Positions 3,156 to 62,860 of a stretch of 64,000 nucleotides of DNA are shown one piece after another; the stretch's first letter is position 1; every line of letters begins with the position of its first letter. This DNA comes from an uncultured Candidatus Saccharibacteria bacterium. GTDB lineage: Bacteria > Patescibacteriota > Minisyncoccia > Minisyncoccales > GWA2-38-27. The notes under the pieces are model-generated. The model was not told the DNA's origin, did not search any database, and saw nothing but the letters and a program-made list of their open reading frames with translations. The stretch spans positions 7,540 through 71,539 of the forward strand of contig CAYZKD010000001.1 of NCBI GenBank assembly GCA_964479375.1. The letters run 5' to 3'. Made by a program: the position numbers and the translations under genes.

Positions 3156-3167
3156 TTATGAAAAAGG

Positions 3168-3234
3168 CAATTACCCTGACACCCGGTTTAAGAAACCTCT
3201 CGGTTTTTTACTTTTTTCCGACACAGGGTAATCG
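3168..3234. repeat. nested palindromic element in the rplX-rplE spacer
   Basis: An outer 9-bp inverted repeat ATTACCCTG...CAGGGTAAT encloses an inner hairpin AGAAACC-TCTC-GGTTTTTT followed by a T-run. rplX and rplE are normally adjacent. Confidence 0.5.
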
Positions 3235-3250
3235 CCATAATTAAAAAATT

Positions 3251-9059: not shown

Positions 9060-9791
9060 ATGTACTTATCTGTTATTGTTCCGGCCTATAATGAGGAGAG
9101 GAGGCTGCCCAAAACCTTAAGATCTATTAATGGCTATTTAGAAAATCAAAACTACGATTATGAGATTCTGGTGGTTTCTGACGGGTCTAAAGACAAAACA
9201 GCAGAGGTTGCCCGCGATCTTATGGGTGAGATCGGCGGATTGAGAGTAATAGACAATAAAAAAAACCATGGCAAGGGTTTTGTTGTAAGGCAGGGCTTAA
9301 CGGAGGCCAAGGGAGAAATAAGGCTATTTACAGACGCTGACGACTCTACCTCCGTAGACCAGGTAGAAAAGATGTTCCCCTTTTTCAAAAAGGGCTTTGA
9401 TATCGTAATAGGATCTAGGGACATAAAGGGCGCAGTTTTGGATCCCCCTCAGCCTTGGCGCAGAAGAATAATAGGGGACGTCTTCAATTTAATGGTTCAG
9501 GTTGTTGTGGGGCTTTGGGGTGTTTGGGATACTCAGTGCGGATTTAAGGCTTTTTCTTCAAGAGTTGTTCAGGATGTCCTGTCTTTGTGCGAGATAGACA
9601 GATGGGCCTTTGATCCTGAAGTGCTAAAGATAGCAAAGAAAAAAGGGTATAAGATAAAAGAGGTTCCCGTGAGGTGGGTTAACGATCCCGACAGCAAAGT
9701 GAATCTAAAAGGAATGATGAGGATGGGGGTGGATCTCCTTAAGATAAGGTGGAATTTAATTACTGGAAAATATGCCCAAAAAGAAAAATAA
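9060..9791 (+). CDS. family 2 glycosyltransferase (dolichyl/polyprenyl-phosphate sugar synthase-like)
   Basis: GT-A fold N-terminus (LSVIVPAYNEERRLPKTL...ILVVSDGSKDKT), a DAD motif (TDADDS) and QCGFKAF. Confidence 0.85.
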   Translation: MYLSVIVPAYNEERRLPKTLRSINGYLENQNYDYEILVVSDGSKDKTAEVARDLMGEIGGLRVIDNKKNHGKGFVVRQGLTEAKGEIRLFTDADDSTSVDQVEKMFPFFKKGFDIVIGSRDIKGAVLDPPQPWRRRIIGDVFNLMVQVVVGLWGVWDTQCGFKAFSSRVVQDVLSLCEIDRWAFDPEVLKIAKKKGYKIKEVPVRWVNDPDSKVNLKGMMRMGVDLLKIRWNLITGKYAQKEK

Positions 9792-10809
9792 ATTTCCTTC
9801 AGAGCTAAGGTCTGATTTGGCTTCAAGAGACTGGGTGATAATTGCCACAGGAAGGGCAAGGAGACCCGAGACATTTAAGAAAGAGAAAAGGGCGGCCCAG
9901 GCTACTCCCAAAAAGGATTGCCCTTTTTGTGATATTAAAACACAAGAGAAGGCCACTCTCGTTTTTTCTAGGGGCAGAGAGGTCCCTTTTAAGCAGTGGA
10001 GGGACCTGCCCAAAGATTGGAGCGTGGTGGTTGTTCCCAATAAATATCCTGCTTTCAGGCCGTATCCTAAACTAAATACTAAAACCGAGAACGGCCTTTA
10101 TACCAAAATGAATGCAGTGGGATTTCATGAAGTGGTGGTGACAAGAGACCATAAAAAACAAGTAGCCCAGTTTTCCAAAGATAAAGTGAAAGAACTCATG
10201 GATGTTTACCAGAAAAGATATCTAGGATTAAAGGATAAAAAATTTGTCAATCATATTTCTATTTTCCATAATCACGGGCAAGAAGCCGGCGCCTCTATCG
10301 GCCATCCTCACTCCCAAATTATTACCACCCCCCTTATTGATGTTGATTTACAGGAGGCTCTTTCTAATTCAAGAAAGTTTAAAAAAAGGAAGAAAGACTG
10401 TATTTACTGCAAAATGAACGAGTGGGAAATGAGGAAAAAAGAAAGGATTGTCTTCGAGAATAAAAACTTTCTGGCGGTTTGTCCCTTTGCCTCCAAAACT
10501 GCCTTCCAGACCATAGTTTCCCCGAAGAAGCACCAATCTTATTTCGAAGAGGTAACAGAAAAAGAAAAAGAGAGTTTGGCAGAAGCATTTGGAGAAACAA
10601 TAAGAAAGATTTACAAAGGCCTTGATGATCCTGCCTACAACTTTTATCTGCATACTGCCCCTTGCGACGGCAATAAACACGATTATTATCATTGGCACTG
10701 GACCATTCTGCCCAAGACCTCAATTTGGGCGGGATTTGAGTTAGGCACTCAAATGGAAATTTCTACCATTGAACCCGAAAAAGCGGCAGACTATTTGAGG
10801 AAACAGTAG
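9772..10809 (+). CDS. galT: galactose-1-phosphate uridylyltransferase-like protein (HIT superfamily, GalT family)
   Basis: Zinc-site CPFCD, active-site HPHSQI (the H-x-H-x-Q nucleotidyl-transfer motif), a second CIYCK motif, and two HIT-like half-domains. Confidence 0.7.
   Translation: MPKKKNKFPSELRSDLASRDWVIIATGRARRPETFKKEKRAAQATPKKDCPFCDIKTQEKATLVFSRGREVPFKQWRDLPKDWSVVVVPNKYPAFRPYPKLNTKTENGLYTKMNAVGFHEVVVTRDHKKQVAQFSKDKVKELMDVYQKRYLGLKDKKFVNHISIFHNHGQEAGASIGHPHSQIITTPLIDVDLQEALSNSRKFKKRKKDCIYCKMNEWEMRKKERIVFENKNFLAVCPFASKTAFQTIVSPKKHQSYFEEVTEKEKESLAEAFGETIRKIYKGLDDPAYNFYLHTAPCDGNKHDYYHWHWTILPKTSIWAGFELGTQMEISTIEPEKAADYLRKQ
10759..10808. repeat. 50-bp direct repeat, copy 1 (last 50 nt of galT)
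   Basis: ATTTCTACCATTGAACCCGAAAAAGCGGCAGACTATTTGAGGAAACAGTA is exactly repeated at 10947-10996, flanking a 138-bp insertion. Confidence 0.9.
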
Positions 10810-10850
10810 ACCTTAAAATATATCATATTATCAGGATCGGTAGAAATTTC

Positions 10851-10935
10851 GGTTTCCCCCGTGTCGGAAAACAGCCCCGCTTTTAGCGGGACGTTAGAAA
10901 CCGAGGGTTTCTAAAAAGGGGGGGCGGGGGAAACC
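10851..10935 (-). repeat. MITE-like palindromic element, copy A (family with terminal inverted repeats GGTTTCCCCCG / CGGGGGAAACC)
   Basis: 85 bp with a perfect 11-bp terminal inverted repeat and a nested near-palindrome TTAGAAACCGAGGGTTTCTAA. Its conserved ends match two more copies at 62224-62319 and 62424-62519, in opposite orientation, with a different central hairpin. Confidence 0.7.
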
Positions 10936-10946
10936 GTATGAACGTA

Positions 10947-10996
10947 ATTTCTACCATTGAACCCGAAAAAGCGGCAGACTATTTGAGGAAACAGTA
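10947..10996. repeat. 50-bp direct repeat, copy 2 (duplicate of the galT 3' end)
   Basis: Identical to 10759-10808. It is followed by TAA instead of TAG. Confidence 0.9.
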
Positions 10997-11080
10997 AAAA
11001 GAAGATTAATTGGGGAACGAAGGAGGGGGGGCTATCCTTGGCAAAGTCTATGAGGAGGATTTAATAAAAAGAAAAAATAG

Positions 11081-11096
11081 TGCTAAAATTATAATA
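11081..11096 (+). promoter_or_regulatory. candidate extended -10 promoter (TGCTAAAATTATAAT) upstream of the pilin gene
   Basis: TGnTAAAAT plus TATAAT 20-35 nt upstream of the start. A near-identical TTGCTAAAATTAT lies at 12639-12652 before the next operon. Confidence 0.4.
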
Positions 11097-11115
11097 ATTA
11101 ATAGCATTAAAAAAT

Positions 11116-14985: not shown

Positions 14986-16191
14986 ATGAAACTGGGATTG
15001 CTGAAAAACAAAAAAGAAAAGCTTTTGTTAGGACTTGATACGGGAACGGAGGCAGTAAAAGCCGCCTTATTTCTTGACAAAGGGGCAGGGGGCTGCAAGA
15101 TTTTAGGATACTCTTCTTGTTATTATGAAAAATACGGAGTATTTAATACCCGGGAATTTTTTAAAGATCTTTTCAAAAATACTGTTTCCAAAGCAGTTAG
15201 GGGAGCCCAAGAGAATGTCGCCCTTTCTGAGGTGCCTCTTGATCTGAAAAAAAGGGTTAGCAAAACAAATTGGGAAGTAGTTTTAACCTTTTCTCCGGAA
15301 TATCTGAAAGCCAGGATTGTCGAGGTTTGTTTTAAGAGGAAAAACAGAAATGTATCTATATCAAAAAAAGAAAAAACGAACATTAAAGAAAACATTCTTT
15401 TTCAGGCCAGAAAGAGAATTTCAGACCAGTTTGCCAGAGAAGCCGGTATTCTGCCCGCAGAAATAGAGTGGCTTTCCTTCAAGGTCCTTGAAAACAAGGT
15501 TGATGGATATAGGGTAGCCGACCTTAAGGATCATAAGGGCGAGAGGCTTGGTTTTAAAATCATGGTTGTATTCTCTCCGCAACATTACCTCAGGAGAATA
15601 AGGAATATTCTCGAAGAATTAAACTTTAATATTATTGGGATCGTTCATCTTGCAGAGATTATTGTTCCGGAAGAGGCCGGATTATTTTTAGATATGGGAG
15701 GTACGGTTAGCCAGGGAATTTGCTTTAAGGGAGGGGCGGTTAAAGAAGTCTTTGAATTCTACAAAGGAGGGCGTGATTTTACAGAAACTCTTTCTCAAGA
15801 CCTGGGCATTGATGAAACCACAGCCCGGAACTTTAAAGAAAGATACTCTTTGGGAGATTTGGGGAAGGGCGCGGAGAAGAAAGTGAAAAGTATTTTTGCT
15901 CAACTCAGAAGGGACTGGTACAATAGTCTTAGGGACAAAGTTAATCTAGTAGACCTTGTTCCTTCCGGGATAAATTTTGTAGGGGGAGGGGCATTGCTTC
16001 CTGACATTGGAAATGTTTTAAAAGAGAATCTGGCAGCGGAATTTCAAAAATCAAGTTTTTCTTATTCTCTGAAAACGAAAATGATTCACCCCGCTGATCT
16101 TAAAAACGGTCTGGAAATTTTAACAAAAAATTTGAACAGCATTCAAGCCACCCCGCTTTTATACATCTGTTCCAACTTCAAAAATGAGTAA
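14986..16191 (+). CDS. actin-fold ATPase of the FtsA/PilM family
   Basis: N-terminal LLGLDTGTEAVKAALF and C-terminal FVGGGALLPDIGNVLKENL phosphate-binding motifs of the ASKHA fold. FtsA cannot be distinguished from PilM by eye. Confidence 0.6.
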   Translation: MKLGLLKNKKEKLLLGLDTGTEAVKAALFLDKGAGGCKILGYSSCYYEKYGVFNTREFFKDLFKNTVSKAVRGAQENVALSEVPLDLKKRVSKTNWEVVLTFSPEYLKARIVEVCFKRKNRNVSISKKEKTNIKENILFQARKRISDQFAREAGILPAEIEWLSFKVLENKVDGYRVADLKDHKGERLGFKIMVVFSPQHYLRRIRNILEELNFNIIGIVHLAEIIVPEEAGLFLDMGGTVSQGICFKGGAVKEVFEFYKGGRDFTETLSQDLGIDETTARNFKERYSLGDLGKGAEKKVKSIFAQLRRDWYNSLRDKVNLVDLVPSGINFVGGGALLPDIGNVLKENLAAEFQKSSFSYSLKTKMIHPADLKNGLEILTKNLNSIQATPLLYICSNFKNE

Positions 16192-17428
16192 TAAATTTTT
16201 TGATGTCATTCCTCCCGAGAGAGGCATAAAAAAGGAAGAGAAAGAAATCTCCCAAGAGGAAAAACCTAAGAAAAAATTAAAAAAACCTTTTGGAAATAAA
16301 GTTAAGGGAATTGTTATTGTTGTCGCCCTCCTTTTATTATTGCTGGGGGCGAGTATGTTTTTTTTCCAGTCACCGGAAGTGAAGATCTATCCCCGGATAA
16401 CAGACTTAAAATTGGAAGAGGAGGCTATTATTGATTCCTCAACAGAAAAGGCCGATTTTGTGGCTAAAGTTATTCCCGGAGAAATCGTAGAAGTTCAGCA
16501 GTCTGCCGCTAAAGAGTTTTCGGTTACAGGAACTACCTCAGAAGAAAAAAGAGCTACGGGTGTCCTTCGGGTTTACAATGCTTACTCTACCAGTCCCCAG
16601 ATTCTAGTGGCTTCTACGAGGTTTGTTTCTGCAGACGGCAAACTTTTCCGTTCTGTTCACCGGGAAACTGTTCCCGGAGGCCATTATGAGGGCGGGGAGT
16701 TTGTCCCCGGCTATGTTGATATTGAAGTAAAAGCAACAGAGCCCGGAGAGGAGTATAACATAAAGCCGACCACTTTTTCCATCCCGGGCTTTGCAGGCAC
16801 TGAACGCTATACTGCTTTTTACGGAAGATCTTTCCAACCCATGGAAGGGGGACATGTAGGAGAGATGGGCCAAGTGACTCAGGAAGACCTTGGCAGAGCA
16901 AGAGAGGAGGTTTTAAATCAGGCAAAGTCGGAAAGCAGAGATTCTCTTGAAAGGAGGGTATCTGAGGACTATGAAATTGTAGCAGAAACAATTACCCAAG
17001 AAGTTCTTTCTGAAAACGCTTCAGCAGAAGCCGAGGAAGCAACAGAAACTTTTGATTATCAGGTTGAAATAAAGACCACGGGGCTGTCTTTCAAGAAAAG
17101 TCATTTAGAAGAGTTTGCCAATAACCTTATCAACCTAAGTCTGCCCGAGAAAAGGAAAATAAAAGAGGGCAGTCGGGAATTTGATTATTCTTTTTTGGAA
17201 GCGGGGATGGAAACGGCAAATCTTAAGGTTTTAGTTGAGGCAAAGGCCTATTACGATTTAGATCTGACAGCCATAAGGGAGTTTTCGGTCGGACAGACCG
17301 AACAAGAGGTAAGGATTATGCTTGAGAGCCAGCCCGGCATTGAAAAAACAGAGCTGGATTTAGGCGCTTTCTGGAACAGGCGGTTTCCCAAAAAACCCGA
17401 GGAAATAACAGTGGAGATTTGCCTTTGA
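16184..17428 (+). CDS. hypothetical bitopic membrane protein (N-terminal TM, large extracytoplasmic domain)
   Basis: The start overlaps the preceding stop. A basic N-terminus is followed by a single TM (GIVIVVALLLLLLGASMFFF). No recognisable motifs. Confidence 0.5.
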   Translation: MSNKFFDVIPPERGIKKEEKEISQEEKPKKKLKKPFGNKVKGIVIVVALLLLLLGASMFFFQSPEVKIYPRITDLKLEEEAIIDSSTEKADFVAKVIPGEIVEVQQSAAKEFSVTGTTSEEKRATGVLRVYNAYSTSPQILVASTRFVSADGKLFRSVHRETVPGGHYEGGEFVPGYVDIEVKATEPGEEYNIKPTTFSIPGFAGTERYTAFYGRSFQPMEGGHVGEMGQVTQEDLGRAREEVLNQAKSESRDSLERRVSEDYEIVAETITQEVLSENASAEAEEATETFDYQVEIKTTGLSFKKSHLEEFANNLINLSLPEKRKIKEGSREFDYSFLEAGMETANLKVLVEAKAYYDLDLTAIREFSVGQTEQEVRIMLESQPGIEKTELDLGAFWNRRFPKKPEEITVEICL

Positions 17429-22225: not shown

Positions 22226-23581
22226 TTAGGGGATTAAGGGTTCAGAGCAAAAGAAGCTTCCTTCAGAAAGCAAACACAATTTATTTATCCCTTGGTACCA
22301 AAGTATCTCGGGATCGGGAAATTCCGCTAGATCACAGGAATTTATTTTGCCTCTGTTATCAATTTCAGAGACTTTTATTTTATCGCCGGTATTGAATATT
22401 AAGTAGTGGGAAGTATACCAGAAGACATTCTTTAATGGCTCTGAGAAGCGGCTGAGAAAAAGGGTCTCGCCTTTTTTTCTTTGGGGCTGGTCTGTAATAT
22501 CTTCGAGAAAAACTATCCATATTTCAGAATCATTGAAATAGGCTATTTTTTTATTGTTGGGGGAAACCTTTAGCCCCTCAATCTTATCTGATATTTTTTG
22601 GAATTCTTTTTCTGGATTTGTTAAGTAAAAGGTCTTCCCCTCTAAAAGAGCAATGTGGAACCCTATTTTATCCACTTTGTATTTGGTTTCTTTTTTAACG
22701 GAGATGGGGGAGTTGGTTATTCTTTCCCGGAACAGAAGATCGTAGTCAGTCTTAACAATAAACCCTTCCTGGTCTAAGAAATAGATGCCGTCTTTTTCCA
22801 GAGAGGCGGTTACCACTTTTTTTAAAGATTTTTCTTTCCCCAGTTCTGATAATTTATTTTCTTTCAGGTAGAATATTCGGGAAGGGTTCCCTGGGTGGAA
22901 ATATACCCGGAGAGGGCCCGAGAGACCCAGTTTTTCCAAAGAAGCGGGCAGAGGGAAAATATCTAAAAGGAAATAGCTAATTTCTCCTGAAACAGCTACT
23001 TTTAAAAAAGCATATTCTCCGTCAGGGGTGATTTCCAAGGAGATTAAATCTACATTTTCTTTTGAGATATCCTCTTTCTTTATGAGGTGGCTTTTAAGGT
23101 TTTTATCCACTTCGACCAGCTTTAGAGACCACATCTCTTCCCTCGACTCCAGCATTATGGTCTTTTGTCCTCGGGTGGAAAAGAAAGAATTCTCGATGTC
23201 TTTGGAGATTAGTTGAAACACCGGTTCTCTGGGAATCAAGACTACGTTTTTCGCTTCTGTCACCCCCCCTTTTTCTATTTCCAAGGTCTTCTTCCAGGGG
23301 CAATAATTTTCTTTTTCTATGCTAAAGCTGTGTTTGCCCGGCAAGATGTTTTCAATAAGAAGGGATCCGAAAAAGCCGTCTGTCCTTTCCTTTTTCTTGT
23401 TGTCTAAAAAGACATTAGTTGCCTTTGGAACAGTCTTGCAGAAGAACATACCGGGCTTGATAACCCCTTTTTCTTTCCAACTAAAACGCCACCCCATAGA
23501 GTAAAAAACAATAAGGGGCGACGCGACTAAAAAAAGTGCGGCAAAGAAGACAAAAATGATTCTGCGGGTTTTTCTTCTCAT
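22226..23581 (-). CDS. membrane-anchored protein with a PEGA-like domain and a large beta-rich extracytoplasmic region
   Basis: N-terminal TM (RRIIFVFFAALFLVASPLIVFYSMGW). A PEGA-like segment (VPKATNVFLDNKKKERTDGFFGSLLIENILPGKHSFSIEKENYCPWKKTLEI) is typical of S-layer or cell-surface proteins. Start chosen at MRRKTRR; the ORF extends to 23638. Confidence 0.5.
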   Translation of the reverse strand: MRRKTRRIIFVFFAALFLVASPLIVFYSMGWRFSWKEKGVIKPGMFFCKTVPKATNVFLDNKKKERTDGFFGSLLIENILPGKHSFSIEKENYCPWKKTLEIEKGGVTEAKNVVLIPREPVFQLISKDIENSFFSTRGQKTIMLESREEMWSLKLVEVDKNLKSHLIKKEDISKENVDLISLEITPDGEYAFLKVAVSGEISYFLLDIFPLPASLEKLGLSGPLRVYFHPGNPSRIFYLKENKLSELGKEKSLKKVVTASLEKDGIYFLDQEGFIVKTDYDLLFRERITNSPISVKKETKYKVDKIGFHIALLEGKTFYLTNPEKEFQKISDKIEGLKVSPNNKKIAYFNDSEIWIVFLEDITDQPQRKKGETLFLSRFSEPLKNVFWYTSHYLIFNTGDKIKVSEIDNRGKINSCDLAEFPDPEILWYQGINKLCLLSEGSFFCSEPLIP

Positions 23582-23828
23582 GTAATTGAATTTTATCAGA
23601 AAAAAATTAATATAAAAAGGTCTGTTATTTTTTAACACCGTGGCGGGGGCTCAAAGAACGATTTGCCGCTCCAAGAGGTCCTTGCTGTGGATAGAGCCGT
23701 TTGTTGTTTGCCCTTTCGGATCCAGAAAGAACGCTTATTTAAACAACGAACACAAAAGCGAATTGATAGTCCGTCTTTGCGTGGCTGCTTGTCATTTGTC
23801 CTATTTTGAATTAAGATAGTATATAAAG

Positions 23829-31036: not shown

Positions 31037-31157
31037 TAAGAACCTGAGCTTCGCTCAGAACCTTGTTTCGCCAAGGAATAATTATATAGTCTTGAAGTAA
31101 GAACCTGAGCTTCGCTCAGAACCTTGATTCGCTAAGGTAAAGCACATAGTCTTGAAA
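31037..31157. repeat. two tandem direct repeats of about 60 bp, each with a small hairpin, in the mreB2-gatC spacer
   Basis: Unit AAGAACCTGAGCTTCGCTCAGAACCTTG(T/A)TTCGC(C/T)AAGG...ATAGTCTTGAA(G/A)T occurs at 31037-31097 and 31098-31157. Each has the hairpin CTGAGCTTCGCTCAG. Confidence 0.7.
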
Positions 31158-33477: not shown

Positions 33478-33790
33478 CGCGGGGTGGAGAAGTAGTATCT
33501 CACGAGGCCCATGCATTAGTGTGGCCAAAGACGGAAACGCCTTTGGAAAAACTCCTGAAATTGCTGGAAAACCATAAGAGTTTCTCTTGCTACAACGCAA
33601 TCTGTAAAGATAGGCGTGAATGTTTAAAAAAAGAGGAAATTTGGCAACCAGCAGCCAAGCCTCCTGATCGGAGGAAGGTTCAGAGACTATAATAGGAGCT
33701 CCCCTTTGGGGAGATGGGATAGTCCATTCCATTTGGAAACAGATGGTATTTAAGAACCTCGAGACGCGGGTGCAATTCCCGCCCCCGCAA
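33478..33790 (+). tRNA. initiator tRNA-fMet(CAT) interrupted by a group I intron (exons 33478-33512 and 33755-33790)
   Basis: The 5' exon CGCGGGGUGGAGA...CGAGGCCCAU and 3' exon AACCUCGAGACGCGGGUGCAAUUCCCGCCCCCGCAA rebuild a 71-nt tRNA. It shows the bacterial-initiator hallmarks: C1xA72 mismatch, the CGCGGGG/CCCCGCAA acceptor (identical to E. coli tRNA-fMet), anticodon stem CGAGG/CCUCG, anticodon CAU. Confidence 0.75.
33513..33754 (+). ncRNA. group I self-splicing intron (242 nt) in the tRNA-fMet anticodon loop
   Basis: The 5' splice site follows U (P1 pairing CCAU with GUGG at 33521-33524) and the intron ends with G (omega G at 33754). Core elements: P AATTGCTGGAAA (33562-33573), Q AACCAGCAGC (33647-33656) with a compensatory change relative to P, R GTTCAGAGACTATAA (33678-33692), S GATAGTCC (33718-33725). 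Confidence 0.7.
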
Positions 33791-33987: not shown

Positions 33988-34058
33988 GCCGGGGAGTAGA
34001 ATGGCATCTAAGGCCGTCTCATAAGCGGTTAACGTGGGTTCGATTCCCGCCCCCGGCA
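33988..34058 (+). tRNA. tRNA with CAT anticodon (elongator Met or lysidine-Ile2), slightly non-canonical D-arm
   Basis: Acceptor GCCGGGG/CCCCGGC, T-arm GTGGG-TTCGATT-CCCGC, anticodon loop CTCATAA. The D-loop is short (6 nt) and the anticodon stem has wobble pairs. The antisense ORF reads GAGIEPT, which is typical over a tRNA. Confidence 0.55.
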
Positions 34059-34064
34059 TATAAT

Positions 34065-34139
34065 GCGGACGTAGCTTAGCTGGCTTAAAGCGCCGCCCTG
34101 TCACGGCGGAGATCGTGGGTTCAAATCCCATCGTCCGCG
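34065..34139 (+). tRNA. tRNA-Asp(GTC)
   Basis: GCGGACG-TA-GCTTAGCTGGCTTAAAGCG-CCGCC-CTGTCAC-GGCGG-AGATC-GTGGG-TTCAAAT-CCCAT-CGTCCGC-G. The cloverleaf is regular and CCA is not encoded. Confidence 0.9.
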
Positions 34140-34352
34140 CAATAATCTGACTTTCTGGAAGTTTTTCTAAATTTTCGGCGGCGGGGCAAAGCGCCGCCCA
34201 ATGTGTTTTGAGGGAGAAATTCGTCTCGTTCGGCGTGCCTTGCGGTTTGCCAAAATGAGGTTCAACCCGAAAATTTTCTTGGCAGTAGCCTTTTTATCTA
34301 AAAGGCTGCTCGCGGGCGAAGATCCTTCCTTCAAATCTCCTTCATTAATGTA

Positions 34353-34380
34353 GGAGGCCCGTCCTCCCACATTTATTTTG
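34353..34380 (+). repeat. hairpin direct repeat, copy 1 (GGAGGCCCGTCCTCCCACATTTATTT)
   Basis: Perfect stem GGGAGG/CCTCCC with loop CCCGT, followed by ACATTTATTTT. An identical 26-mer recurs at 35399-35424, so the pair brackets the CDS 34444-35190. Confidence 0.75.
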
Positions 34381-34443: not shown

Positions 34444-35190
34444 ATGTTTAAATATCTAAATCGTAGCATATCCATGCCAATAGCAATAGGAATTATTGTT
34501 ATTTTAATAATTTTAGTTGGAGGAGGGACATTTATTTACCAGTATTATTGGCCCAAAACAGAACCGCAACCAATATCTTTTTCAAACGATTGTAATGAAT
34601 TAATAAGACAAGTAAGCAATTTAGTTGAAGAAGCAAATTATTGTAATGCGGATTCCGATTGTACGATATCAACCGAAACTACAAAATTCTGCGGTTGTTG
34701 GAGTTTAATTAACAAAAATGCCGATTTGTCAAAAATAAAAGAGGGAAATGAGAAATATAATAAATTAAATTGCCCGATACTTATGTGCGCTGAGTGTATG
34801 CTAACCCCGCAGCAAGAGGATATAGAATGTGTAAATCATAAGTGCGTTGTATCTTCTTCTGGCATCGTTAAGTTGGGGGATATAGTTTCAAACCCGTCCC
34901 AATATAGTAATAAAACTGTAATCGTTGAAGGAAAATACGGGGGCTGGAAACCCACAGCCGATATTCCCTGCAATGAGGCGAATATAGCAATTCTAACAAA
35001 AAGCGATACGCTAATTTATGATGGCACCGATTGTTTGTTTATGTCAGCCATCGGGGGGGTTAATATTTTATCCGAACCGAAAAATCTAAACCCAGTAGAA
35101 AACTCCATAAATATTGGCCAAGATATTAAGGTAGAAGCAGTAGTTAACTTGATCAACGGAAAACCAATCCTAGGGCTGATAAACCAATAA
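34444..35190 (+). CDS. cysteine-rich secreted or membrane-anchored protein, AT-rich (putative horizontally acquired cargo)
   Basis: N-terminal signal anchor (MPIAIGIIVILIILVGGG). There are 14 Cys including CNADSDC, CGC, CPILMCAEC and CVNHKC. Codon usage is markedly more AT-rich than neighbouring genes. Confidence 0.6.
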   Translation: MFKYLNRSISMPIAIGIIVILIILVGGGTFIYQYYWPKTEPQPISFSNDCNELIRQVSNLVEEANYCNADSDCTISTETTKFCGCWSLINKNADLSKIKEGNEKYNKLNCPILMCAECMLTPQQEDIECVNHKCVVSSSGIVKLGDIVSNPSQYSNKTVIVEGKYGGWKPTADIPCNEANIAILTKSDTLIYDGTDCLFMSAIGGVNILSEPKNLNPVENSINIGQDIKVEAVVNLINGKPILGLINQ

Positions 35191-35398
35191 ACGACTCTAA
35201 TAATAAAGCCGAATAAAAAAGAAAATCAAATGTTTCGAAAATAAAATTTTTTAGCGGCGGGGCGGGACACCTAAAATTTTATGTTGGGGTTTTCTATAAA
35301 AAAGGTTCTAACTTGGCCGTAAAGACGCGCAGAGTTTTAATATTAGAATCCAGATTCCATTGTGCCGGTTCATATGGCATTATCCAAAAAAATGTGGG

Positions 35399-35424
35399 AG
35401 GCCCGTCCTCCCACATTTATTTGT
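35399..35424 (+). repeat. hairpin direct repeat, copy 2, followed by a second related hairpin (GGAGGTTCGTCCTCC)
   Basis: Identical to 34355-34380. The adjacent hairpin at 35428-35442 has the same stem with a different loop. Confidence 0.75.
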
Positions 35425-39616: not shown

Positions 39617-43798
<4,182 letters not shown>

Positions 43799-47179: not shown

Positions 47180-48880
47180 ATGGCAGAAATACTAAAAAAT
47201 GCAGGCTCTCACAAGATTTTGTCTATTATGGGAGGGAGTGAGGGGGAGAGTCCTCTTCAGTTGATAGAGGTTGCGGGAAGGACTGCATACCAAAGCAGGG
47301 ACAAGATCAGCGATGAGTCAGCATCAAGGTTTGTCGAAATGATAAGGAAGAGGGGACACGAATCAGTATTGGAGCATTCTTGTATGACAGTAGAATTTAA
47401 TAATGTCTCCCGTGGTTTTTGTTATGACGACAAAACAGAGGTTTTGACAAAAGAAGGCTGGAAATATTTTTATGAAACCACAGAAAAAGATAAATTTTTG
47501 ACTTTAAACTTGAAAAACAAAAAAATAGAATATCAAAAACGTAAGGATTTTACAGCCGAAGATTGGAATGGTCAGTTGATTTATGGGAAGTCTTCTATGG
47601 TTGATTTTGCCGTCACCCCTAACCATAGAATGGTCTATTTTCCTTACGACAAGCGGGTTGATAAAGAGTGGGGGATTGCTCAGGCAAAAGAAATTTATGG
47701 TAAAAGAGTAAAGTTTGAGAGGGGGCTATTTAATAATTGGACAGGACTTAAAATTAAGAATAAATATTCTCAACAAGACAGCCTGTCTTTTGCAAAATTT
47801 ATGGGGGTTTTTATTACAGATGGTTCTTTGTGGAAAGGAAAGCAGACCGGCGGCAGGATAGTTTTAAGCCAGACAAAAAAAGGAGGGAGAGATTTCATCA
47901 GGAAGACGCTGAGTGATTTAGGATGGAATTTTAAGGAACGCAGGGACGGTTTTAGAATAAATGATACTAAGCTTTATCATTTTCTTAGGAAATATTTTCC
48001 TGAGACAAAGAAAAAAAGTGAAGACGGTCGGGTCCCCGAATGGATAAGGATGTCATCTCCGGAATATATCAGAGAGTTTATGAACGGCGTTATTGTCGGA
48101 GACGGGAATATTCATAAGGGGAACAAACACATAGTTATTTATTCTGGTTCTCAAAAATTATCTGGTGATTACCAAGAATGTATATTCAAGATGGGACTGT
48201 GTTCTACGGTGAGGATGGACGATAGAAGGGGTCAGGCGCATAAAGTTGGTAAAGCTCCGATAAAAAACAAAAGAAAATCATATATTGTTTCTATTACGAA
48301 AAGAACCAATGCCCATTTGTTTAATAGAAAACTATGGTCAAAAAGAAAGTATAGGGGTAAAGTATATTGCGTGACGGTTCCGAACGGGACTCTTTATGTA
48401 AGAAGAAACGGAAAGGCGTTTTGGTCTGGGAATACCCACGAGATGGTTCGCCATAGGTTAGTTGCTTACACTCAAGAATCTACAAGATACGTGGACGAGA
48501 GTAATTTTAGGGTGGTTGTCCCTCCCGACAAAGATCCTCAGAAAAAAATAGTAACCTTGGGTCTTCCCAATGGGGACAAATCAGAGGTTTCTTTTGAAGA
48601 CTGGGTTAATCTTAACGAGCAAATGTACAGAGGACTGAGAAAGGCCGAATGGGTGCCTCAGGACGCCAGGCAGACATTACCTATAGGGATAAAGTCTCAG
48701 ATTGTAGCCACAGCCAACTTTAGGGAATGGCGCCACATTTTTACCTTAAGATGTTCCCCCAAGGCTCATTGGGAAATAAGGAGAGTGATGACCAACCTTT
48801 TAAAAGAGGTAAAAGAAAGGGTTCCTGTTATTTTCGATGACTTTGAAATTTTAGAAGAAGGCGCTCAAAAAAAGCCTTAA
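47180..48880 (+). CDS. thyX: flavin-dependent thymidylate synthase ThyX precursor containing an intein (mature about 228 aa)
   Basis: Exteins: ...HESVLEHSCMTVEFNNVSRGF | THEMVRHRLVAYTQESTRY... This is the ThyX RHR...S...R motif, split by the intein. Confidence 0.9.
   Translation: MAEILKNAGSHKILSIMGGSEGESPLQLIEVAGRTAYQSRDKISDESASRFVEMIRKRGHESVLEHSCMTVEFNNVSRGFCYDDKTEVLTKEGWKYFYETTEKDKFLTLNLKNKKIEYQKRKDFTAEDWNGQLIYGKSSMVDFAVTPNHRMVYFPYDKRVDKEWGIAQAKEIYGKRVKFERGLFNNWTGLKIKNKYSQQDSLSFAKFMGVFITDGSLWKGKQTGGRIVLSQTKKGGRDFIRKTLSDLGWNFKERRDGFRINDTKLYHFLRKYFPETKKKSEDGRVPEWIRMSSPEYIREFMNGVIVGDGNIHKGNKHIVIYSGSQKLSGDYQECIFKMGLCSTVRMDDRRGQAHKVGKAPIKNKRKSYIVSITKRTNAHLFNRKLWSKRKYRGKVYCVTVPNGTLYVRRNGKAFWSGNTHEMVRHRLVAYTQESTRYVDESNFRVVVPPDKDPQKKIVTLGLPNGDKSEVSFEDWVNLNEQMYRGLRKAEWVPQDARQTLPIGIKSQIVATANFREWRHIFTLRCSPKAHWEIRRVMTNLLKEVKERVPVIFDDFEILEEGAQKKP
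47420..48433 (+). mobile_element. thyX intein (338 aa) with a LAGLIDADG endonuclease domain
   Basis: Starts CYDDKTEVLTKEGW right after SRGF, ends ...FWSGN, and the +1 residue is Thr of THEMVRHR. LAGLIDADG-like blocks FMGVFITDGSL and EFMNGVIVGDGNI. The penultimate residue is Gly rather than the usual His. Confidence 0.8.
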
Positions 48881-52724: not shown

Positions 52725-54347
52725 TTAATGGATTTTTTCTTTTTTTTCTTTAAGGAAATAACGCCATTGCTCTATGAACTCGATGAAGATCATAAAGGGC
52801 ATATCGATTAGAGCATTGAATACCGCAGAGATTACATTGTACCTTTTCCATCTAGTAGTAAGCCATTTGCCAAGTTGGACTACGGGGACGGCGAAGGGAT
52901 CGAAAATAAAGTGGAAGAAGGTCTCTTTTCTTTCGATTATCTGTAGCTCTTTTGCTCTTTGCCTTATTTTGGCCCCGGCGAAAGCGATTAAGGATAGGAA
53001 TACGATAAAGATAACGTAAGAGAGGGGAGGGAAGTTTGCTTGGTAAAGCCCCCATATTATTAAAGTCAAAAAGACAGCAGAGCTCAAAAGGTAAATAAAG
53101 TTGATTATAGAGCGAATAACAACACCTCCCTTGCGATAAGCTTTAACCTCGTAGATATCTTCCTCTTCTGTTTTGTAAGTTATTTTCATGACTTCAACTA
53201 TAACCCGCTGAAGATTTCCTTTCTTGGGGGGCTTGATGGAGATTACCAGACAAGCCATCAGTAGGGTGGGAATAAATATGTCCACCCCAATGGCGAATAA
53301 ACTAAAGTTACCCATTACATATTTTGAAAAGGGAATTTCAATGGCGAGCAAAGAAACGACGTTGGTTAAAAATATAGAAAGAGTGGAATAAAACGCAGCC
53401 CTTCCCAGTCGGGATTTCAGGGTTTTAAGGCGCCCCTTATATTTTTCTTTAACTTTTGTCTCTAGGGCCTCAGGGTTTCCTATCTTTTCTTCCGCTTCTG
53501 GAGGGGACTCTTCAATAATGTCGCCTAGCAGTAAGTAGGGAGTGTCGTATTTTTCACAAATCTGATAAAATTTGTCTCCCAGAGGGTGATTTAAGTCTTT
53601 TTCTACCCGATTCCAAATAGAGTAGATATTTTTAGTAACTTTTTCTGTTCCTTCCTGCGATTGGTTCTTCCAAGTAGGATAGTAGTATTTTAATAGATGG
53701 TAACTAATAACCGAGGAATCCAAATTAAACAGAGCTCTTTGGGAGGCAATATATGTTTGGATATTTCTTTCTTCTTCGGGCATACCATTCTTTACTATCA
53801 GCCCTTCGTTTACTCTTATTTTCTTTTTCATTTGAGAGAACATATAATCAATCAGCGCTCTTTCTTTGGAAACCGAAGTAAGAATTTCTTCTATCTCGCA
53901 GGCCGCTATAGAAAAAAGCCAGTTATAAAGCCTTATCTTGGATTTCTTTTTTGAAGCGGGGCTGTTGTTGATAATTTTTGTGTATTTTTCAATCGCTTTC
54001 TGAGCCTCTGCTATTTTTTCTTCTTCTATCTTGTCATTAGGAAAGTGACCGCTTCTGATAAGATCTAAAACCATGGGCTCTGCCAAATCCCCCACTGAAA
54101 AGTTCCCGCTTAGCAGGTCTGCTTTAGAATAGACCCTTCTTTTAAGTATTCTTTCTATCGCCCCTCTTTTAAGGAGATGCTCTTCTTTCCAGTCAATAAT
54201 CCCCCTTAACTTTTCATAAAAAGTCGCGACCTTTGAGGCCACTTCGTCTACATGGATGGTATTTGCTTCTTTCGAAGGCCTTAAGGACCAATACCAGGCC
54301 TTGTATCTGTCTATTAATTTTTGAGTTTCTTCTGAAATTCCCTTCAT
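52725..54347 (-). CDS. hypothetical large membrane protein (N-terminal soluble domain of about 330 aa, C-terminal 5-6 TM helices)
   Basis: The hydrophobic C-terminal half has TM helices. No motif recognised. Translationally coupled to the thrS stop. Confidence 0.5.
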   Translation of the reverse strand: MKGISEETQKLIDRYKAWYWSLRPSKEANTIHVDEVASKVATFYEKLRGIIDWKEEHLLKRGAIERILKRRVYSKADLLSGNFSVGDLAEPMVLDLIRSGHFPNDKIEEEKIAEAQKAIEKYTKIINNSPASKKKSKIRLYNWLFSIAACEIEEILTSVSKERALIDYMFSQMKKKIRVNEGLIVKNGMPEEERNIQTYIASQRALFNLDSSVISYHLLKYYYPTWKNQSQEGTEKVTKNIYSIWNRVEKDLNHPLGDKFYQICEKYDTPYLLLGDIIEESPPEAEEKIGNPEALETKVKEKYKGRLKTLKSRLGRAAFYSTLSIFLTNVVSLLAIEIPFSKYVMGNFSLFAIGVDIFIPTLLMACLVISIKPPKKGNLQRVIVEVMKITYKTEEEDIYEVKAYRKGGVVIRSIINFIYLLSSAVFLTLIIWGLYQANFPPLSYVIFIVFLSLIAFAGAKIRQRAKELQIIERKETFFHFIFDPFAVPVVQLGKWLTTRWKRYNVISAVFNALIDMPFMIFIEFIEQWRYFLKEKKEKIH

Positions 54348-56962: not shown

Positions 56963-59900
56963 TCAGGAAGAATTTACAATTTCTTCGATCGCTTCTGCGA
57001 TAAGCTTTATTTCTCCCTGCCTGTCGTCTACTCTGGCTGAGACAAACACAACCTTATTCTCTTCAAAAACGTCAGGGTTTTTTTCCATAATGCTCGGGAA
57101 AACAACAACCTCTCTTTTGCCGGTCAGATCTTCTAATTGCATGAAGAGCATTGATTTTCCGTTTTTGGTAAGTATTTTTTTTATTCCAGAAATAATGCCG
57201 CCGACCCTTACTCTTCTATTGGTTAAGGAGGTTCCAATTTTCGCCAGAGAGAGCGCTCCCTCTTTAAAAACATTCCTGTAGTCTTCTAGGGGATGGGAGC
57301 TGATATAGAGCCCCAAAAGCTCTTTTTCCCAGCCTAGTTTTTTGAAATTGGAAACGGGTTCTGCCGAAGCCAGATTAAGGTGGTTATTAAACTTTGATCC
57401 GTCAAACAATCCTTTTTGGCCGTTCTCTTTAGATTTACTTTTTTCTCTAACGGCCTCTAAGACTCTTTCCATGTTTTGGAATAAGCGGTTTCTTTCCCCA
57501 AACTCGTCAAAGACCCCGGCTCTGATTAAGCTTTCTAAGGACTTCTTGTTTAAGACGCCGCTGTCCATTCTTTCTGCGAAATCCCCAATAGACTTGAAGG
57601 GGCCTCTCTCTTTTTTTTCTTTGACAATGGCGTCTACTACATTCTCTCCCACGTTTTTAATAGCCAAAAGCCCGAAGCGGATTTGTTTTTTATCAGGGAT
57701 TACAGTGAAGTTTTTTAAACTTTCGTTGAGACTGGGGGGGAGGGTTTCGATATCCATTTCGCGTGCGTTTTCTATAAGTATAGCAATCTTTTCTACGTCG
57801 TTTCTTTCAGAGGTCATTAAAGAAGCCATAAATTCTACCGGGTAGTGGGCCTTCAAATAGGCGGTCTGGTAGGCGATCATGGCATAGGCTGTCGAGTGCG
57901 AGTTATGAACAAAAATATCATTGGCTATGAAATTGTGAGTGTCTTTAATGGTCAGATCAAAGGTTTCCTCTGTTCCTTTGGGCGCAATGGAGGCGATCTC
58001 ATCCCAAAAAACATCAGAGGTGGCGTATTTTTCCAATTCCTTGCTATGCATTGATTGAGAAATAAAAGAAACGGCCTCTCTTAAATATCCCTTTTTCTCG
58101 GGATCTTTAAGAAACAATCTCTTTGAAAAACTGTTTTCTCTGCTTATCTGAGCGAAAGTTAGCATTTCTCTCTCGGCTGTCTGTCGCATAATGTCAACTA
58201 CAATATTTGCCGGTACAATATCTCTGCTTCCCCGGGCTGGCCATGGTTTTATGGTTCCGTTTAGAATTGGGTGGGCTTTCTTTATCTCTTCTAACACCCC
58301 CTTTTTTTCTTTCAGTGAATAGGGGCTGAGGTGCTTGATGAACTTTTGGATGTTGTCGTGGCGGCTGATATTAATTGTATATCCTATTTTCACCCCTTCT
58401 CTGTATCTGAATTTCTTTTTGTGGATAACCGAGATGATGCCTAGCCTGAGCAGCAGGCTCTGGAAGGCTTCGGCAATAGCAGCAGAGGACGTGGAGTAAA
58501 AGATAGCAGGGAGCTTGTTTTTGAAATTAATACAACCGTCACCCTGGAACATCTTGGCTGCAAGAAGAGCAACCTTTGATTCGGGAAGCTGGAAAACAAA
58601 TTCTGGTAGGAATTTTTGGGTTGCTTTCTTGTTGTGTAATCCCAGACCCCTGATCCATTCTACTGCTTCTGATTTTTCTTTTCTGTTTTTTCTTTTTGAG
58701 TAGACTGCAATGGCTTTCTTTTTGTAGTCTTTTCTTCCAAGAGTATTATCAAATTTTTCCAGGTAACGAATGTAGTCTTCTATCTCTTCCTTTGATTTTG
58801 AATAGAAATAGAAACCGCGAGGATGGCAGAAGTTGCCCTCGGCCAGAAGATAGCCCAAAATGGCGACCTTGTGGTCTTCAATGTCAACAGGCTTTGAGGG
58901 CTCTGGAACAATTCTCGGAGTTGCAACTCTTTCTCCAACCTTGATTTCCTCGAGCTTTTTCCAGCCATCCCCTGTAAGGAAGGGGTGGTTTTTGGTAACT
59001 TTTATTCTCTTTCCGGTTTTGGTTCTGACTTCAAATACAGGCTTCCTGCCATTTGAAAAAACATCAACTATTTTTGACTTCTTTATCTTGAGATCTTTGG
59101 AAAGGGAGAAAGCTCCTTTGGCTCGTTTTTTGTCGTTTAAAAGGTCTGTTACTTTCACCCTTTCGCCTGTTTCCGGGTTGATTATCTTTGTGTCGCCGGT
59201 TACGCACTTGTTAAAGCCATAGCGGGCAAAAGGCAAGATCCATTGCCAGATCTTTTCGCCCACTTCTTTTTTTATACCGTTTTTTACAGTGCCCTCGATA
59301 AACTTTTTCTTCTGGCCATGAAGCAATTTTTCTATTTTCTTTCCCACCGCTTTTCTCAAGATATCTGCTTCTGAGAGAGTAAACCCCGCTATTTCCCTGG
59401 CAATTCTCATCAACTGCTCTTGATAAATGCAGATACCGTTTGTTTCTTCAAGGATGGGTTTTAGTTTTGGGTGTAGATACTCGGTTTTCTGACGACCGTG
59501 TCTTCTTTCAATAAAATCAGGAAGAAACTGCATGGGTCCTGGGCGATAAAGGGCAACCATCGCGATGATGTCTTCAAACTTAACAGGCTTTAGCTGCTTG
59601 AGAAATCTCCTAATCCCGCCTCCTTCCAGTTGGAATACTCCTGTCGTATTTCCCTGCTGCAGAAGTTGAAAGGTTTTCTCGTCGTCTAGGGGTATTTCTT
59701 CGATATCTACTTTTTCTTTGTTTCTTACTACATAGATTCTGGCCAAAGTGTCCTCAATGATGGTAAGATTTTTTAGGCCCAAAAAATCCATTTTCAATAA
59801 TCCCAAATCTTCAATGGCGTGCATTTCATACTGGGTTACTATAGTTTCATCGTTTTGGGTGGGGCGTTGAAGAGGAACTGAATTAGTAAGAGGGTCTGCC

Positions 59901-62168: not shown

Positions 62169-62223
62169 GTTATAAGATAATATGGCAGTTCCAAAGCAGA
62201 GGAAAACAAAATCACGATCACAG

Positions 62224-62319
62224 GGTTTCCCCCGACCCCCTTTTAGAAACCCGCGGTTTCTAACATTTTTGGCTTTGCTCCGCTCGGCCAAAAGCCTGTT
62301 TTCCTACACGGGGGAAACC
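62224..62319 (+). repeat. MITE-like palindromic element, copy B1 (same family as 10851-10935)
   Basis: GGTTTCCCCCGACCCCCTTTTAGAAACCCGCGGTTTCTAAC...CGGGGGAAACC. Ends and sub-palindrome are conserved with copy A, reverse-complemented. The central hairpin differs. Confidence 0.7.
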
Positions 62320-62423
62320 CCGATTTTGTTGAGATTTTGATTACTTTTTTTCTCCGGACATATTTTTTTTAATACTATATTATGGCAGTTCCAAAGCAGA
62401 GGAAAACAAAATCACGATCACAG

Positions 62424-62519
62424 GGTTTCCCCCGACCCCCTTTTAGAAACCCGCGGTTTCTAACATTTTTGGCTTTGCTCCGCTCGGCCAAAAGCCTGTT
62501 TTCCTACACGGGGGAAACC
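62424..62519 (+). repeat. MITE-like palindromic element, copy B2 (identical to B1)
   Basis: Identical sequence, 200 bp downstream of B1. Confidence 0.7.
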
Positions 62520-62581
62520 CCGATTTTGTTGAGATTTTGATTACTTTTTTTCTCCGGACATATTTTTTTTAATACTATATT

Positions 62582-62860
62582 ATGGCAGTTCCAAAGCAGA
62601 GGAAAACAAAATCGAGGAGAGATAAAAGAAGGATGCATATTTCTGTCAAAAAACCTGATTTAACCGCTTGCCCCAAATGCGGCAGTTTGGTCAGGCCCCA
62701 TACGGCTTGTTCAAAATGCGGTTTTTACAGAGGGAGAGAGGTAATAAATATTATGGAAAAAATGGATAAAAAGGAAAGGAAGAAAAAGGAAAAAGAAATG
62801 GCAGAACAGGAAAAGCAGGAGAAAAAACCTTTAAATATGGAGAAATTGTCTCAGAAATAA
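62582..62860 (+). CDS. rpmF: 50S ribosomal protein L32 with a KE-rich C-terminal extension
   Basis: [17 protein letters not shown]...[20 protein letters not shown] matches L32. An extra tail of about 35 aa follows. Confidence 0.85.

Follow-up and report, generated by a model that had tools for sequence, protein, structure and literature searches.

Miniature inverted-repeat transposable elements (MITEs) and the Correia, ERIC, RUP and Rickettsia palindromic elements are short, non-coding, multi-copy repeats whose inverted repeats form stems, and which are intergenic and present or absent between relatives. Here we report an element that resembles them in each of these properties, found at the end of galT and at other sites in a 64,000-nt stretch of DNA from an uncultured Candidatus Saccharibacteria bacterium, hereafter the window. 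Like the Rickettsia palindromic elements, it occasionally has an in-frame intragenic copy, here in rpsB of locus L035. The genomes of Patescibacteria are among the smallest and most compact in bacteria, and their repeats are little known. The element is flanked by long, variable direct repeats, for which the only bacterial precedent documented for comparison is that of IS1549 and IS1634 (IS1634 family), whose insertions give direct repeats of 8-514 bp by an unexplained mechanism (PMC2266710). We propose that it is a small non-coding, non-autonomous mobile element widespread in Patescibacteria, an explanation that we hold, as a whole, to be on balance probable.

The galT open reading frame (ORF) of the window occupies 9772-10809 and ends in TAG at 10807-10809. 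A 51-nt segment at its end recurs exactly, at a spacing of 188 nt, and the sole difference between the two gene ends is the third base of the stop codon (Table 1). Between them lies an 85-nt element with complementary 11-nt ends (GGTTTCCCCCG/CGGGGGAAACC), enclosing a palindrome (TTAGAAACC-GAG-GGTTTCTAA, 10894-10914) and a GC hairpin (10876-10891). Defining orientation A as the strand that reads GGTTTCCCCCGACCCCCCTCTTTTAGAAACC...CTGTTTTCCTACACGGGGGAAACC, and B as its complement, this copy has orientation A on the minus strand, and its linker forms a precise element end that abuts the target. No source of the 29-nt filler was found by blastn-short in the window or in the fetched loci. The window's GalT was not on record in an exact-protein look-up. 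As a separate observation, the 119 nt that separate the free galT end from a pilin-like gene (10997-11115) contain a G-rich run (GGGGAACGAAGGAGGGGGGG), are missing in the relative L047 (89% identical) and may be a decayed remnant of an earlier insertion.

Near rpmF, two 200-nt tandem units (62172-62371 and 62372-62571) are 99% identical, and each contains the first 32 nt of rpmF (ATGGCAG...AAAATC) and a 96-nt copy of the family in the orientation opposite to that at galT. The 51-nt filler of the first inserted unit carries promoter-like hexamers. Comparison with relatives that have an empty site shows that 400 nt (62214-62613) were inserted after ...AAAATC, with 32 nt duplicated. The array is one gene-terminal insertion of this family, and unequal exchange between the 32-nt repeats is the probable cause of its doubling. 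We considered whether the array is bypassed by ribosomes or spliced, and dropped the idea because the last copy is a complete gene with its own start and relatives lack the array.

A fourth, divergent copy lies within a ribosomal protein operon; its closing stem, P1, is fully compensated (GGCAATTACCCTG/CAGGGTAATCGCC), and it has neither the variable hairpin P3 nor a long duplication. A near-identical counterpart sits between miaB and miaA in the relative L042. The 21-nt palindrome pattern has 3 matches in the window compared with 0.00 expected from shuffles, and the 11-mer has 6 exact matches (8 allowing 1 mismatch) compared with 1.4; these counts are far above the shuffled expectation and thus exclude chance. 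An earlier note on this DNA, made from the sequence alone, had seen an element between duplicated galT 3' ends, the first ending in TAG and the second in TAA, and had seen the same family twice more beside duplicated rpmF 5' ends; repeat analysis of the window bears out both. The galT duplication is exact, as it said, and measures 51 nt, not 50. Its 11-bp terminal inverted repeat does pair, but it is not terminal: it is the closing stem P1, which lies 10 nt and 2 nt inside the real ends. The note missed the copy in the ribosomal protein operon, which brings the number in the 64-kb window to 4.

Empty sites in close relatives identify these structures as recent insertions. Relatives for the rpmF site were found by way of RpmF homologues on syntenic contigs. 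In L042 (syntenic, RpmF 95% identical) the rnhB-rpmF junction reads ...ggttataagataatATGGCAGTTCCAAAGCAGAGGAAAACAAAATCaaggagag, with one copy and no element, and L043-45 (RpmF 76%) have the same empty junction with a single ATGGCAG...ACAAAATC. In L047 (GalT 89% identical) the galT stop is 1 nt from the next gene and there is no second copy; in an 87% relative the contig ends exactly at the galT stop. More distant empty sites are rpmF in L030 and galT in L033, both of which have the family elsewhere. Reciprocally, the miaB-miaA spacer is occupied in L042 by a subfamily-2 copy with a duplication of only 4-5 nt and is empty in the window and in L043. The empty sites and this reciprocal copy make it very probable that we are dealing with a mobile element whose insertion creates the duplications, and one that has been active between genomes 87-95% identical in the compared proteins.

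Element ends were defined by comparison with empty sites and by more than 20 flank alignments. In orientation A, an insertion reads: a target segment X ending in CAAAAT(C/T); the linker ACGATCACAC; the core; 2 nt that are mostly GA; X', in which the last 6-19 nt of X are repeated in inverted form; a filler of 0-52 nt; and X again, continuous with the host sequence. Insertion takes place immediately 3' of CAAAAT(C/T), and X comprises the 5-93 nt that lie 5' of the cut. The linker meets the target at an exact junction and 2 nt separate core and inverted copy in nearly all loci, and every locus with a long duplication has such a copy. X measures about 6 nt in L035, 17-23 nt at rpsT starts (L011, L016, L032, L038), 17-21 nt at a YjbQ-like site (L026, L034, where the older free copy has diverged), 32-42 nt at rpmF in the window, 51-63 nt at galT sites (window, L015, L019/21/23, L029, L040), 63 nt at an mraY-like end (L028), 69 nt at rpmF in L020, promoter included, and about 93 nt in L031. 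Long repeats are identical or nearly so and short ones have drifted, a pattern that fits gene conversion acting only above a minimal length. At the four positions where the target tail of L029 differs from that of L019, the inverted copy in L029 has the complementary change (4 of 4), which shows that X' tracks the local target. Searches of the fetched DNA found no source for the fillers.

Targeting appears to be sequence specific. The same rpmF position has been hit independently in different sub-lineages (window and L020), and the rpmF and rpsT targets are near-identical, both reading A(A/T)AACAAAATC|G; together these indicate that the target sequence guides insertion. X always extends just past a gene start or stop (in galT, rpmF, rpsT, mraY-like and YjbQ-like genes), and the target motif is usually intragenic, in genomes that have almost no intergenic DNA. 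We infer that this gene-sparing pattern reflects survivorship, since only an insertion with a duplication that spans the terminus leaves the gene intact. The free copy lies beside the linker at 6 of 6 sites; this polarity was dropped as a mechanistic clue, because it follows from a duplication that is one-sided to the cut and from the scarcity of intergenic DNA. In L035 (1690-1850), a 120-nt insertion in the 5' part of an rpsB-like gene is in frame and without stops, and the ribosomal protein S2 homologue would, from its sequence, carry a 40-residue insert. Most copies have an open frame through the core on both strands.

The same anatomy bears on a mini integrative cassette, a small circle of linker, core and tail with a carried gene end that would integrate at CAAAAT(C/T) by site-specific or Campbell-type recombination, one repeat being borne by the element. 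Integration of circles, or rolling-circle copying, is expected to give X-element-X and, at rpmF, the tandem X-element-X-element-X; the galT, rpsT and rpmF sites recur in different genomes, and the filler upstream of the second and third rpmF copies is promoter-like and differs from the native upstream sequence. However, a cassette accounts for homing only and not for the origin of new sites with new repeats, and the repeats range from 5 to 93 nt. Moreover, the inverted copy in L029 matches the sequence of the recipient itself, the 32-nt rpmF segment is the same in all three copies and in the relative with the empty site, no homolog of the filler was found, and there is no recombinase among the scanned window ORFs. 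We consider a cassette quite improbable.

The family was searched for with short patterns, one per scan, in one genome scan and one metagenome scan, a census that sets a lower bound. It gave 5 true members from genomes and 26 from metagenomes, all in contigs of AT-rich Patescibacteria and often near contig ends; named hosts are Nealsonbacteria, the 'Parcubacteria group', Saccharibacteria and the 'Patescibacteria group'. The other 9 of the 14 genome-scan matches (L002, L004-L007, L010, L012-L014) lie in GC-rich genomes and were discarded as chance. A covariance model built from 25 distinct copies recovers all 25 and gives 31 matches from 26 sources in 253 kb of fetched Patescibacteria DNA. It also recovers a divergent group, subfamily 2, whose P1 shows complete compensation (AATTACCCCG/CGGGGTAATT) and which comprises copies in the window (between rplX and rplE), in L021 (rpsK/rpsD), in L003 (next to tRNA-Ile) and in L042 (miaB/miaA).

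In orientation A the element proper consists of the 10-nt linker, a core of about 75-110 nt and the 2 further nt (about 87-125 nt in all). The core folds as a three-way junction formed by P1 (11-13 bp), by P2 (TTAGAAACC/GGTTTCTAA), a 9-bp hairpin with a 3-nt loop, and by P3, which ranges from absent (in the 75-nt L028 copy) to long hairpins; the C/U-rich junction strands are conserved across the family. In the alignment of 31 sequences, 96.5% of cells are paired and 8 of 20 pairs have changed on both sides (29 cells), a level of covariation reached by none of 500 shuffles, and when the partners are slid, at most 70% pair. Because the sequences were aligned by fitting to the model, the counts are tilted in favour of structure. 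An HDV-like fold by way of GGUUUC/GAAACC repeats was rejected, P1 covarying with the 3' end and not with P2. The core is almost identical between Saccharibacteria and Parcubacteria, with a 27-nt identical stretch.

The family is real and apparently undescribed. No Rfam 15 covariance model matched at gathering score, and relaxing the threshold to E up to 10 brought in only weak, clearly unrelated matches of 15-19 bits. Viral contigs and plasmid and phage collections held no members, their one match (L041) being due to chance, and the literature, searched also for the literal sequence, held no named family that matches. In a set of 5.8 billion proteins, a peptide read through the element had 2 weak matches only. 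Assembly artefact through repeat-induced misassembly, or a template and variable repeat pair of a diversity-generating retroelement (DGR), we judge extremely improbable. Assemblers can make a 200-nt tandem doubling and exact repeats, and contigs often break at the elements; yet the same architecture occurs, with repeats of differing sequence and length, in over 20 contigs, which stem from different projects and were built by different assemblers. DGR variable repeats, too, lie at gene 3' ends; here, however, duplications also affect 5' ends, the two galT copies agree at all 51 nt, a second copy is missing from relatives, and the window encodes no reverse transcriptase.

Several constraints apply to one strand. 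P1 has 5 non-Watson-Crick cells, each of which reads C.A on A and hence G.U on B. On B, the short P3 reads GC-GA-GC-GAA-GC-GA-GC, with tandem G.A pairs and a GCGAAGC mini-hairpin that covaries to ACGAAGU and sometimes has a GAAA loop; the same positions on A are U.C/C.U mismatches. Strand B folds better in 24 of 28 copies, under an energy model that favours G-rich strands anyway. Copies occur in both orientations relative to transcription, and it is more likely that the strand-specific constraints reflect a mobile intermediate than an in-place function. Strand specificity also bears on an ordinary DNA MITE moved by a DDE transposase with long, variable, staggered cuts, for which IS1549 and IS1634 provide the precedent. 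The element is indeed short and multi-copy, without an ORF, and has an inverted-repeat stem. However, conserved junctions and pairs that form on one strand (G.U, tandem G.A) are not needed by a double-stranded transposase site, the inverted repeat lies 10 nt and 2 nt from the ends, and such a transposase would not be expected to leave filler and an inverted target patch. MITEs do not typically have cores that are near-identical across classes, and no transposase is present in the scanned window ORFs. In our estimate an ordinary MITE has only a slim prospect of being the explanation.

In three copies, the B-strand core and GUGUGAUCGU end exactly at position +1 of a tRNA, namely tRNA-Ala in L003, tRNA-Ala in L009 and tRNA-Trp in L030 (regions L003 471-805, L009 4147-4341 and L030 7745-7917). 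These tRNA-linked copies could be source genes with an RNA released by RNase P, or they could mark a second kind of target. In L003, two head-to-head copies fill the tRNA-Ile/tRNA-Ala spacer, and in L009 a 15-nt partial copy (the last 5 nt of P1 and the linker) lies 44 nt upstream of the full copy.

The variable duplications, the filler and the inverted target patch argue together against a DDE transposase with a fixed stagger, against HUH transposition and against site-specific recombination. Such scars are typical of insertions completed by a polymerase through target-primed copying, snap-back and re-priming. It may well be, although we hold this only tentatively, that the insertion is polymerase-made, by target-primed copy-in of a single-stranded intermediate and not by cut-and-paste. 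A nick after CAAAAT(C/T) would prime copying of the single-stranded form of the element. At the end of the template, the new strand would fold, with P1 closing, and would then snap back on the target tail and copy a few bases, which would leave the inverted patch. Re-priming further upstream on the chromosome would produce the filler and the direct duplication. The putative enzyme would act in trans and be encoded outside the window: among the 40 window ORFs scanned against Pfam (31 with housekeeping-type domains and 9 without a match), there is no reverse transcriptase, transposase or integrase, and the gene content is ordinary housekeeping together with several homing elements (inteins and a group I intron).

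We think it unlikely, though deserving of attention, that the template is RNA and the process a retroposition like that of short interspersed elements (SINEs); the alternative is single-stranded DNA. Also unlikely is the specific proposal of a bacterial SINE counterpart, in which a structured RNA would be made as a tRNA 5' leader, RNase P would free its precise GUGUGAUCGU 3' end, and a host or intron reverse transcriptase would copy it, target-primed at CAAAAT(C/T) nicks. If true, this family would be the first case of a retroposed small RNA on record for bacteria.

Single-strand DNA transposition of the IS200/IS605 or REP-RAYT type, REPIN-like with a Y1 HUH enzyme acting in trans and a guide at the stem foot that pairs with the target, was weighed against polymerase-made insertion. 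In IS608, cleavage falls about 10 nt 3' of the right-end hairpin, and a guide base-pairs with the cleavage site. Similarly, our element inserts 3' of a specific short motif, its ends lie at fixed distances from the foot of a strand-specific fold, and the sequence beside the stem foot is complementary to the target tail. In contrast, neither a target duplication nor filler accompanies insertion in the IS200/IS605 family, whose guides are constant and 4 nt long; the patch here is locus-specific and 6-19 nt long, and no Y1 gene lies within the 64-kb window. This route is very doubtful.

Several observations weigh against the explanation we favour. The mobilising enzyme and the intermediate, be it RNA, a circle or complementary DNA, are putative, and the tandem doubling at rpmF is read from assembled sequence. 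The tRNA-abutting copies have neither a CAAAATC target nor a duplication, and the simple insertion rule does not account for them. The filler and the inverted patch could be partly borne by the element or have evolved after insertion, and copies without duplications have a GATTTTG-like sequence and an AT-rich palindrome, AATTTTG-N-CAAAATT, after the core. Evidence on the strand is divided: pairing favours B, yet a -10-like box precedes the linker by 7-9 nt on A in four solitary copies, and some A loops are cUUCGg. Finally, so nearly identical a core in different classes is unusual for a repeat that is purely selfish, and it suggests a function at the level of the host.

Such a function is the core of one further explanation, that of a host-useful RNA, either a small RNA gene or a module for termination, processing or stability, in which the gene ends and the patch are selected parts of regulatory hairpins. 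The strong conservation across classes and the good placement of the -10-like box would fit, as would the U-tract that follows P1 on A. The C-rich unpaired strands resemble small RNAs that bind Shine-Dalgarno sequences (a weak LhrC-like Rfam alignment reached 19 bits), many copies lie beside translation genes (rpmF, rpsT, rpsB, rplE, rpsD and tRNAs), and the inverted patch co-varies with the attached gene copy in L029. Against this, presence or absence between 87-95%-identical genomes makes the element dispensable at a given site, both orientations relative to transcription occur, in several copies the strand that folds better runs antisense to the operon, and function leaves the duplications unexplained. 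As a replacement for mobility, a host RNA is thus very improbable; a host RNA function is compatible with mobility, and the two are not exclusive.

The broader suggestions of the earlier note can be read in this light. Its term MITE-like holds for a mobile short repeat, with empty sites and about 30 members, and fails in the strict sense on the ends, on the length of the duplication and on the lack of a known parent insertion sequence. Its proposal of an element that duplicates or carries a replacement gene end is half sustained: duplication occurs, as a target duplication of variable length, and a carried end is unneeded. Its alternative, a structured RNA, may also be right: the fold is conserved and one of the two strands is clearly the better folder, the folded molecule being either RNA or single-stranded DNA. 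It was right that the family is novel, with no match in Rfam or the literature, and that no integrase is nearby. The empty sites in relatives that it had thought worth comparing were found at rpmF (L042, L043-45) and galT (L047), the further copies show the same flank architecture in independent assemblies, and the covariation it had asked after is present.

The element lands in essential translation genes (rpmF, rpsT and rpsB), which are left intact by way of duplicated ends. Its insertions create decoy gene starts, new 5' leaders and new 3' hairpins, and they break metagenome assemblies; in annotation, gene ends that are truncated or duplicated are to be expected, as are spurious ORFs that run through the element. 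The scars are unlike those of any well-understood bacterial transposition pathway, and the element offers a way to study polymerase-driven, possibly RNA-mediated insertion in bacteria.

Table 1. Features of the element copies in the window and of the sequences that flank them.
Feature	Position	Strand	Evidence or remark
Duplicated target, galT-attached copy, 51 nt at ORF end	10758..10808	+	100%-identical repeat pair; ORF call
Filler/spacer at galT, 29 nt	10810..10838	.	blastn-short: chance 12-13-mers only
Inverted copy GGTAGAAATT of first 10 nt of duplicated segment (AATTTCTACC)	10839..10848	+	X' 11/13; starts 2 nt from core
Element end TC, 2 nt	10849..10850		After inverted copy
Element core, 85 nt, three-way junction: P1 GGTTTCCCCCG/CGGGGGAAACC, P2 TTAGAAACC/GGTTTCTAA, variable P3 hairpin	10851..10935	-	Covariance model 92 bits, E 2e-22; covariation
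Conserved 10-nt linker, ACGTTCATAC on minus strand (family consensus ACGATCACAC)	10936..10945	-	Family-wide conservation
Duplicated target, free copy of the 51 nt at the galT end; TAA stop at 10995-10997	10946..10996	+	Second copy absent in 89%-identical relative L047
Free copy 1 of first 32 nt of rpmF, contiguous with native rnhB-rpmF spacer	62182..62213	+	Single copy at empty site in L042/L043
Inserted unit 1 at rpmF	62214..62381	+	86.5 bits; absent from relatives
Unit 1, linker ACGATCACAG	62214..62223		
Unit 1, core, followed by CC	62224..62319		
Unit 1, inverted target copy GATTTTGTT	62322..62330		
Unit 1, filler	62331..62381		
Second tandem unit at rpmF	62382..62581	+	99% identity over 200 nt; model match
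Second unit, free copy 2 of rpmF start, followed by identical linker	62382..62413		
Second unit, core, followed by inverted copy and filler	62424..62519		
Third 32-nt copy, the real rpmF start (ORF 62582-62860)	62582..62613	+	
Divergent subfamily 2 copy between rplX and rplE	3166..3236	+	Model 30.8 bits, E about 1e-5

Other features of the window were recorded beside the element. A group I intron (Rfam RF00028, 77.9 bits) at 33503-33746 lies just upstream of tRNA-Met (33988-34058) and tRNA-Asp (34065-34140). ARAGORN called no tRNA around it, and a split tRNA gene missed by that program is possible; group I introns in Patescibacteria tRNA genes were recently described (PMC13011429). Intein or LAGLIDADG insertions are present in gyrB (39629-43798), dnaE (56963-61438) and thyX (47180-48880), all essential genes. 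The DnaE of L042/L043 is intein-less (1056 aa), and intein presence is thus also polymorphic in this lineage. Between mreB and gatC, two tandem 40-nt repeats with a 61-nt period (31037-31137) each form the hairpins CTGAGC-TTC-GCTCAG and CCTTG-N6-CAAGG; they share the GCTTCGC/GCGAAGC motif with P3 of the element and may be another small structured repeat or a terminator module. A GC-cored palindrome of 32-35 nt (AATGTRGGAGGCCCGTCCTCCCACATTTATTT) occurs at 34344-34378 and 35386-35422, about 1 kb apart, flanking an ORF without a Pfam match (34444-35190). Large ORFs without a Pfam match lie at 22226-23638 (-), 52725-54347 (-) and 14986-17428 (+); the one of 540 aa is conserved and syntenic in L042/L043.

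Compared with known systems, the element is short, non-coding, multi-copy and present or absent between relatives, as MITEs are. It differs from them and from the other small repeats in that its inverted repeat is subterminal, its duplications of 5-93 nt come with filler and an inverted patch, and its core is a three-way junction with conserved single strands that is near-identical across class-level lineages. Where a MITE has terminal inverted repeats and a short duplication of fixed length, the duplications here range from 4-6 up to 69-93 nt; no related autonomous insertion sequence with the same ends was found in the window, nor was there a plasmid or phage match. IS1549 and IS1634 share the long variable direct repeats but are autonomous insertion sequences of 1.5-2 kb with a DDE transposase and terminal inverted repeats, whereas the window has no transposase and the structural constraints here are specific to one strand.

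Similarities to REP/REPIN-RAYT and IS200/IS605 elements are a folded single strand that is apparently recognised, a short motif, fixed end distances and mobilisation in trans. Those systems insert at a specific motif without target duplication and use simple hairpins; here CAAAAT(C/T) is present but duplications accompany it, and the window has no Y1 gene. Islands that target tRNA genes, and integron attC cassettes, likewise have a gene-terminus direct repeat that flanks the insert and leaves the gene intact, and a folded single-strand site is plausible. In contrast, the insert here is 125-210 nt, without cargo and without a recombinase in the window, and both 5' and 3' ends are duplicated. 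Integron recombination is precise and without filler, and it requires a recombinase; here the repeats vary, 0-52 nt of filler and an inverted patch are present, and the window has no integrase. DGRs have a nearby reverse transcriptase and repeats that differ at adenines, neither of which is seen in the window.

SINEs and retroposed small RNAs (Alu, U6 and snoRNA retrocopies) resemble the element in being structured units of RNA size with precise ends and variable duplications, and in an A/T-rich cut site and in filler and inversions at the junctions (PMC4476161, PMC1687206). A further likeness is that three copies stand exactly at a tRNA 5' end; cleavage there by RNase P would free an RNA that ends precisely with the linker. 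The element differs in having no poly-A tail or tail derived from a long interspersed element, and its RNA intermediate and reverse-transcriptase partner are putative. To our knowledge, nothing of this kind is known in bacteria. The family lies outside the strict definitions of MITE, REP/RAYT, integron and DGR, and its best place is among the small non-autonomous mobile repeats, as a variant of that kind.

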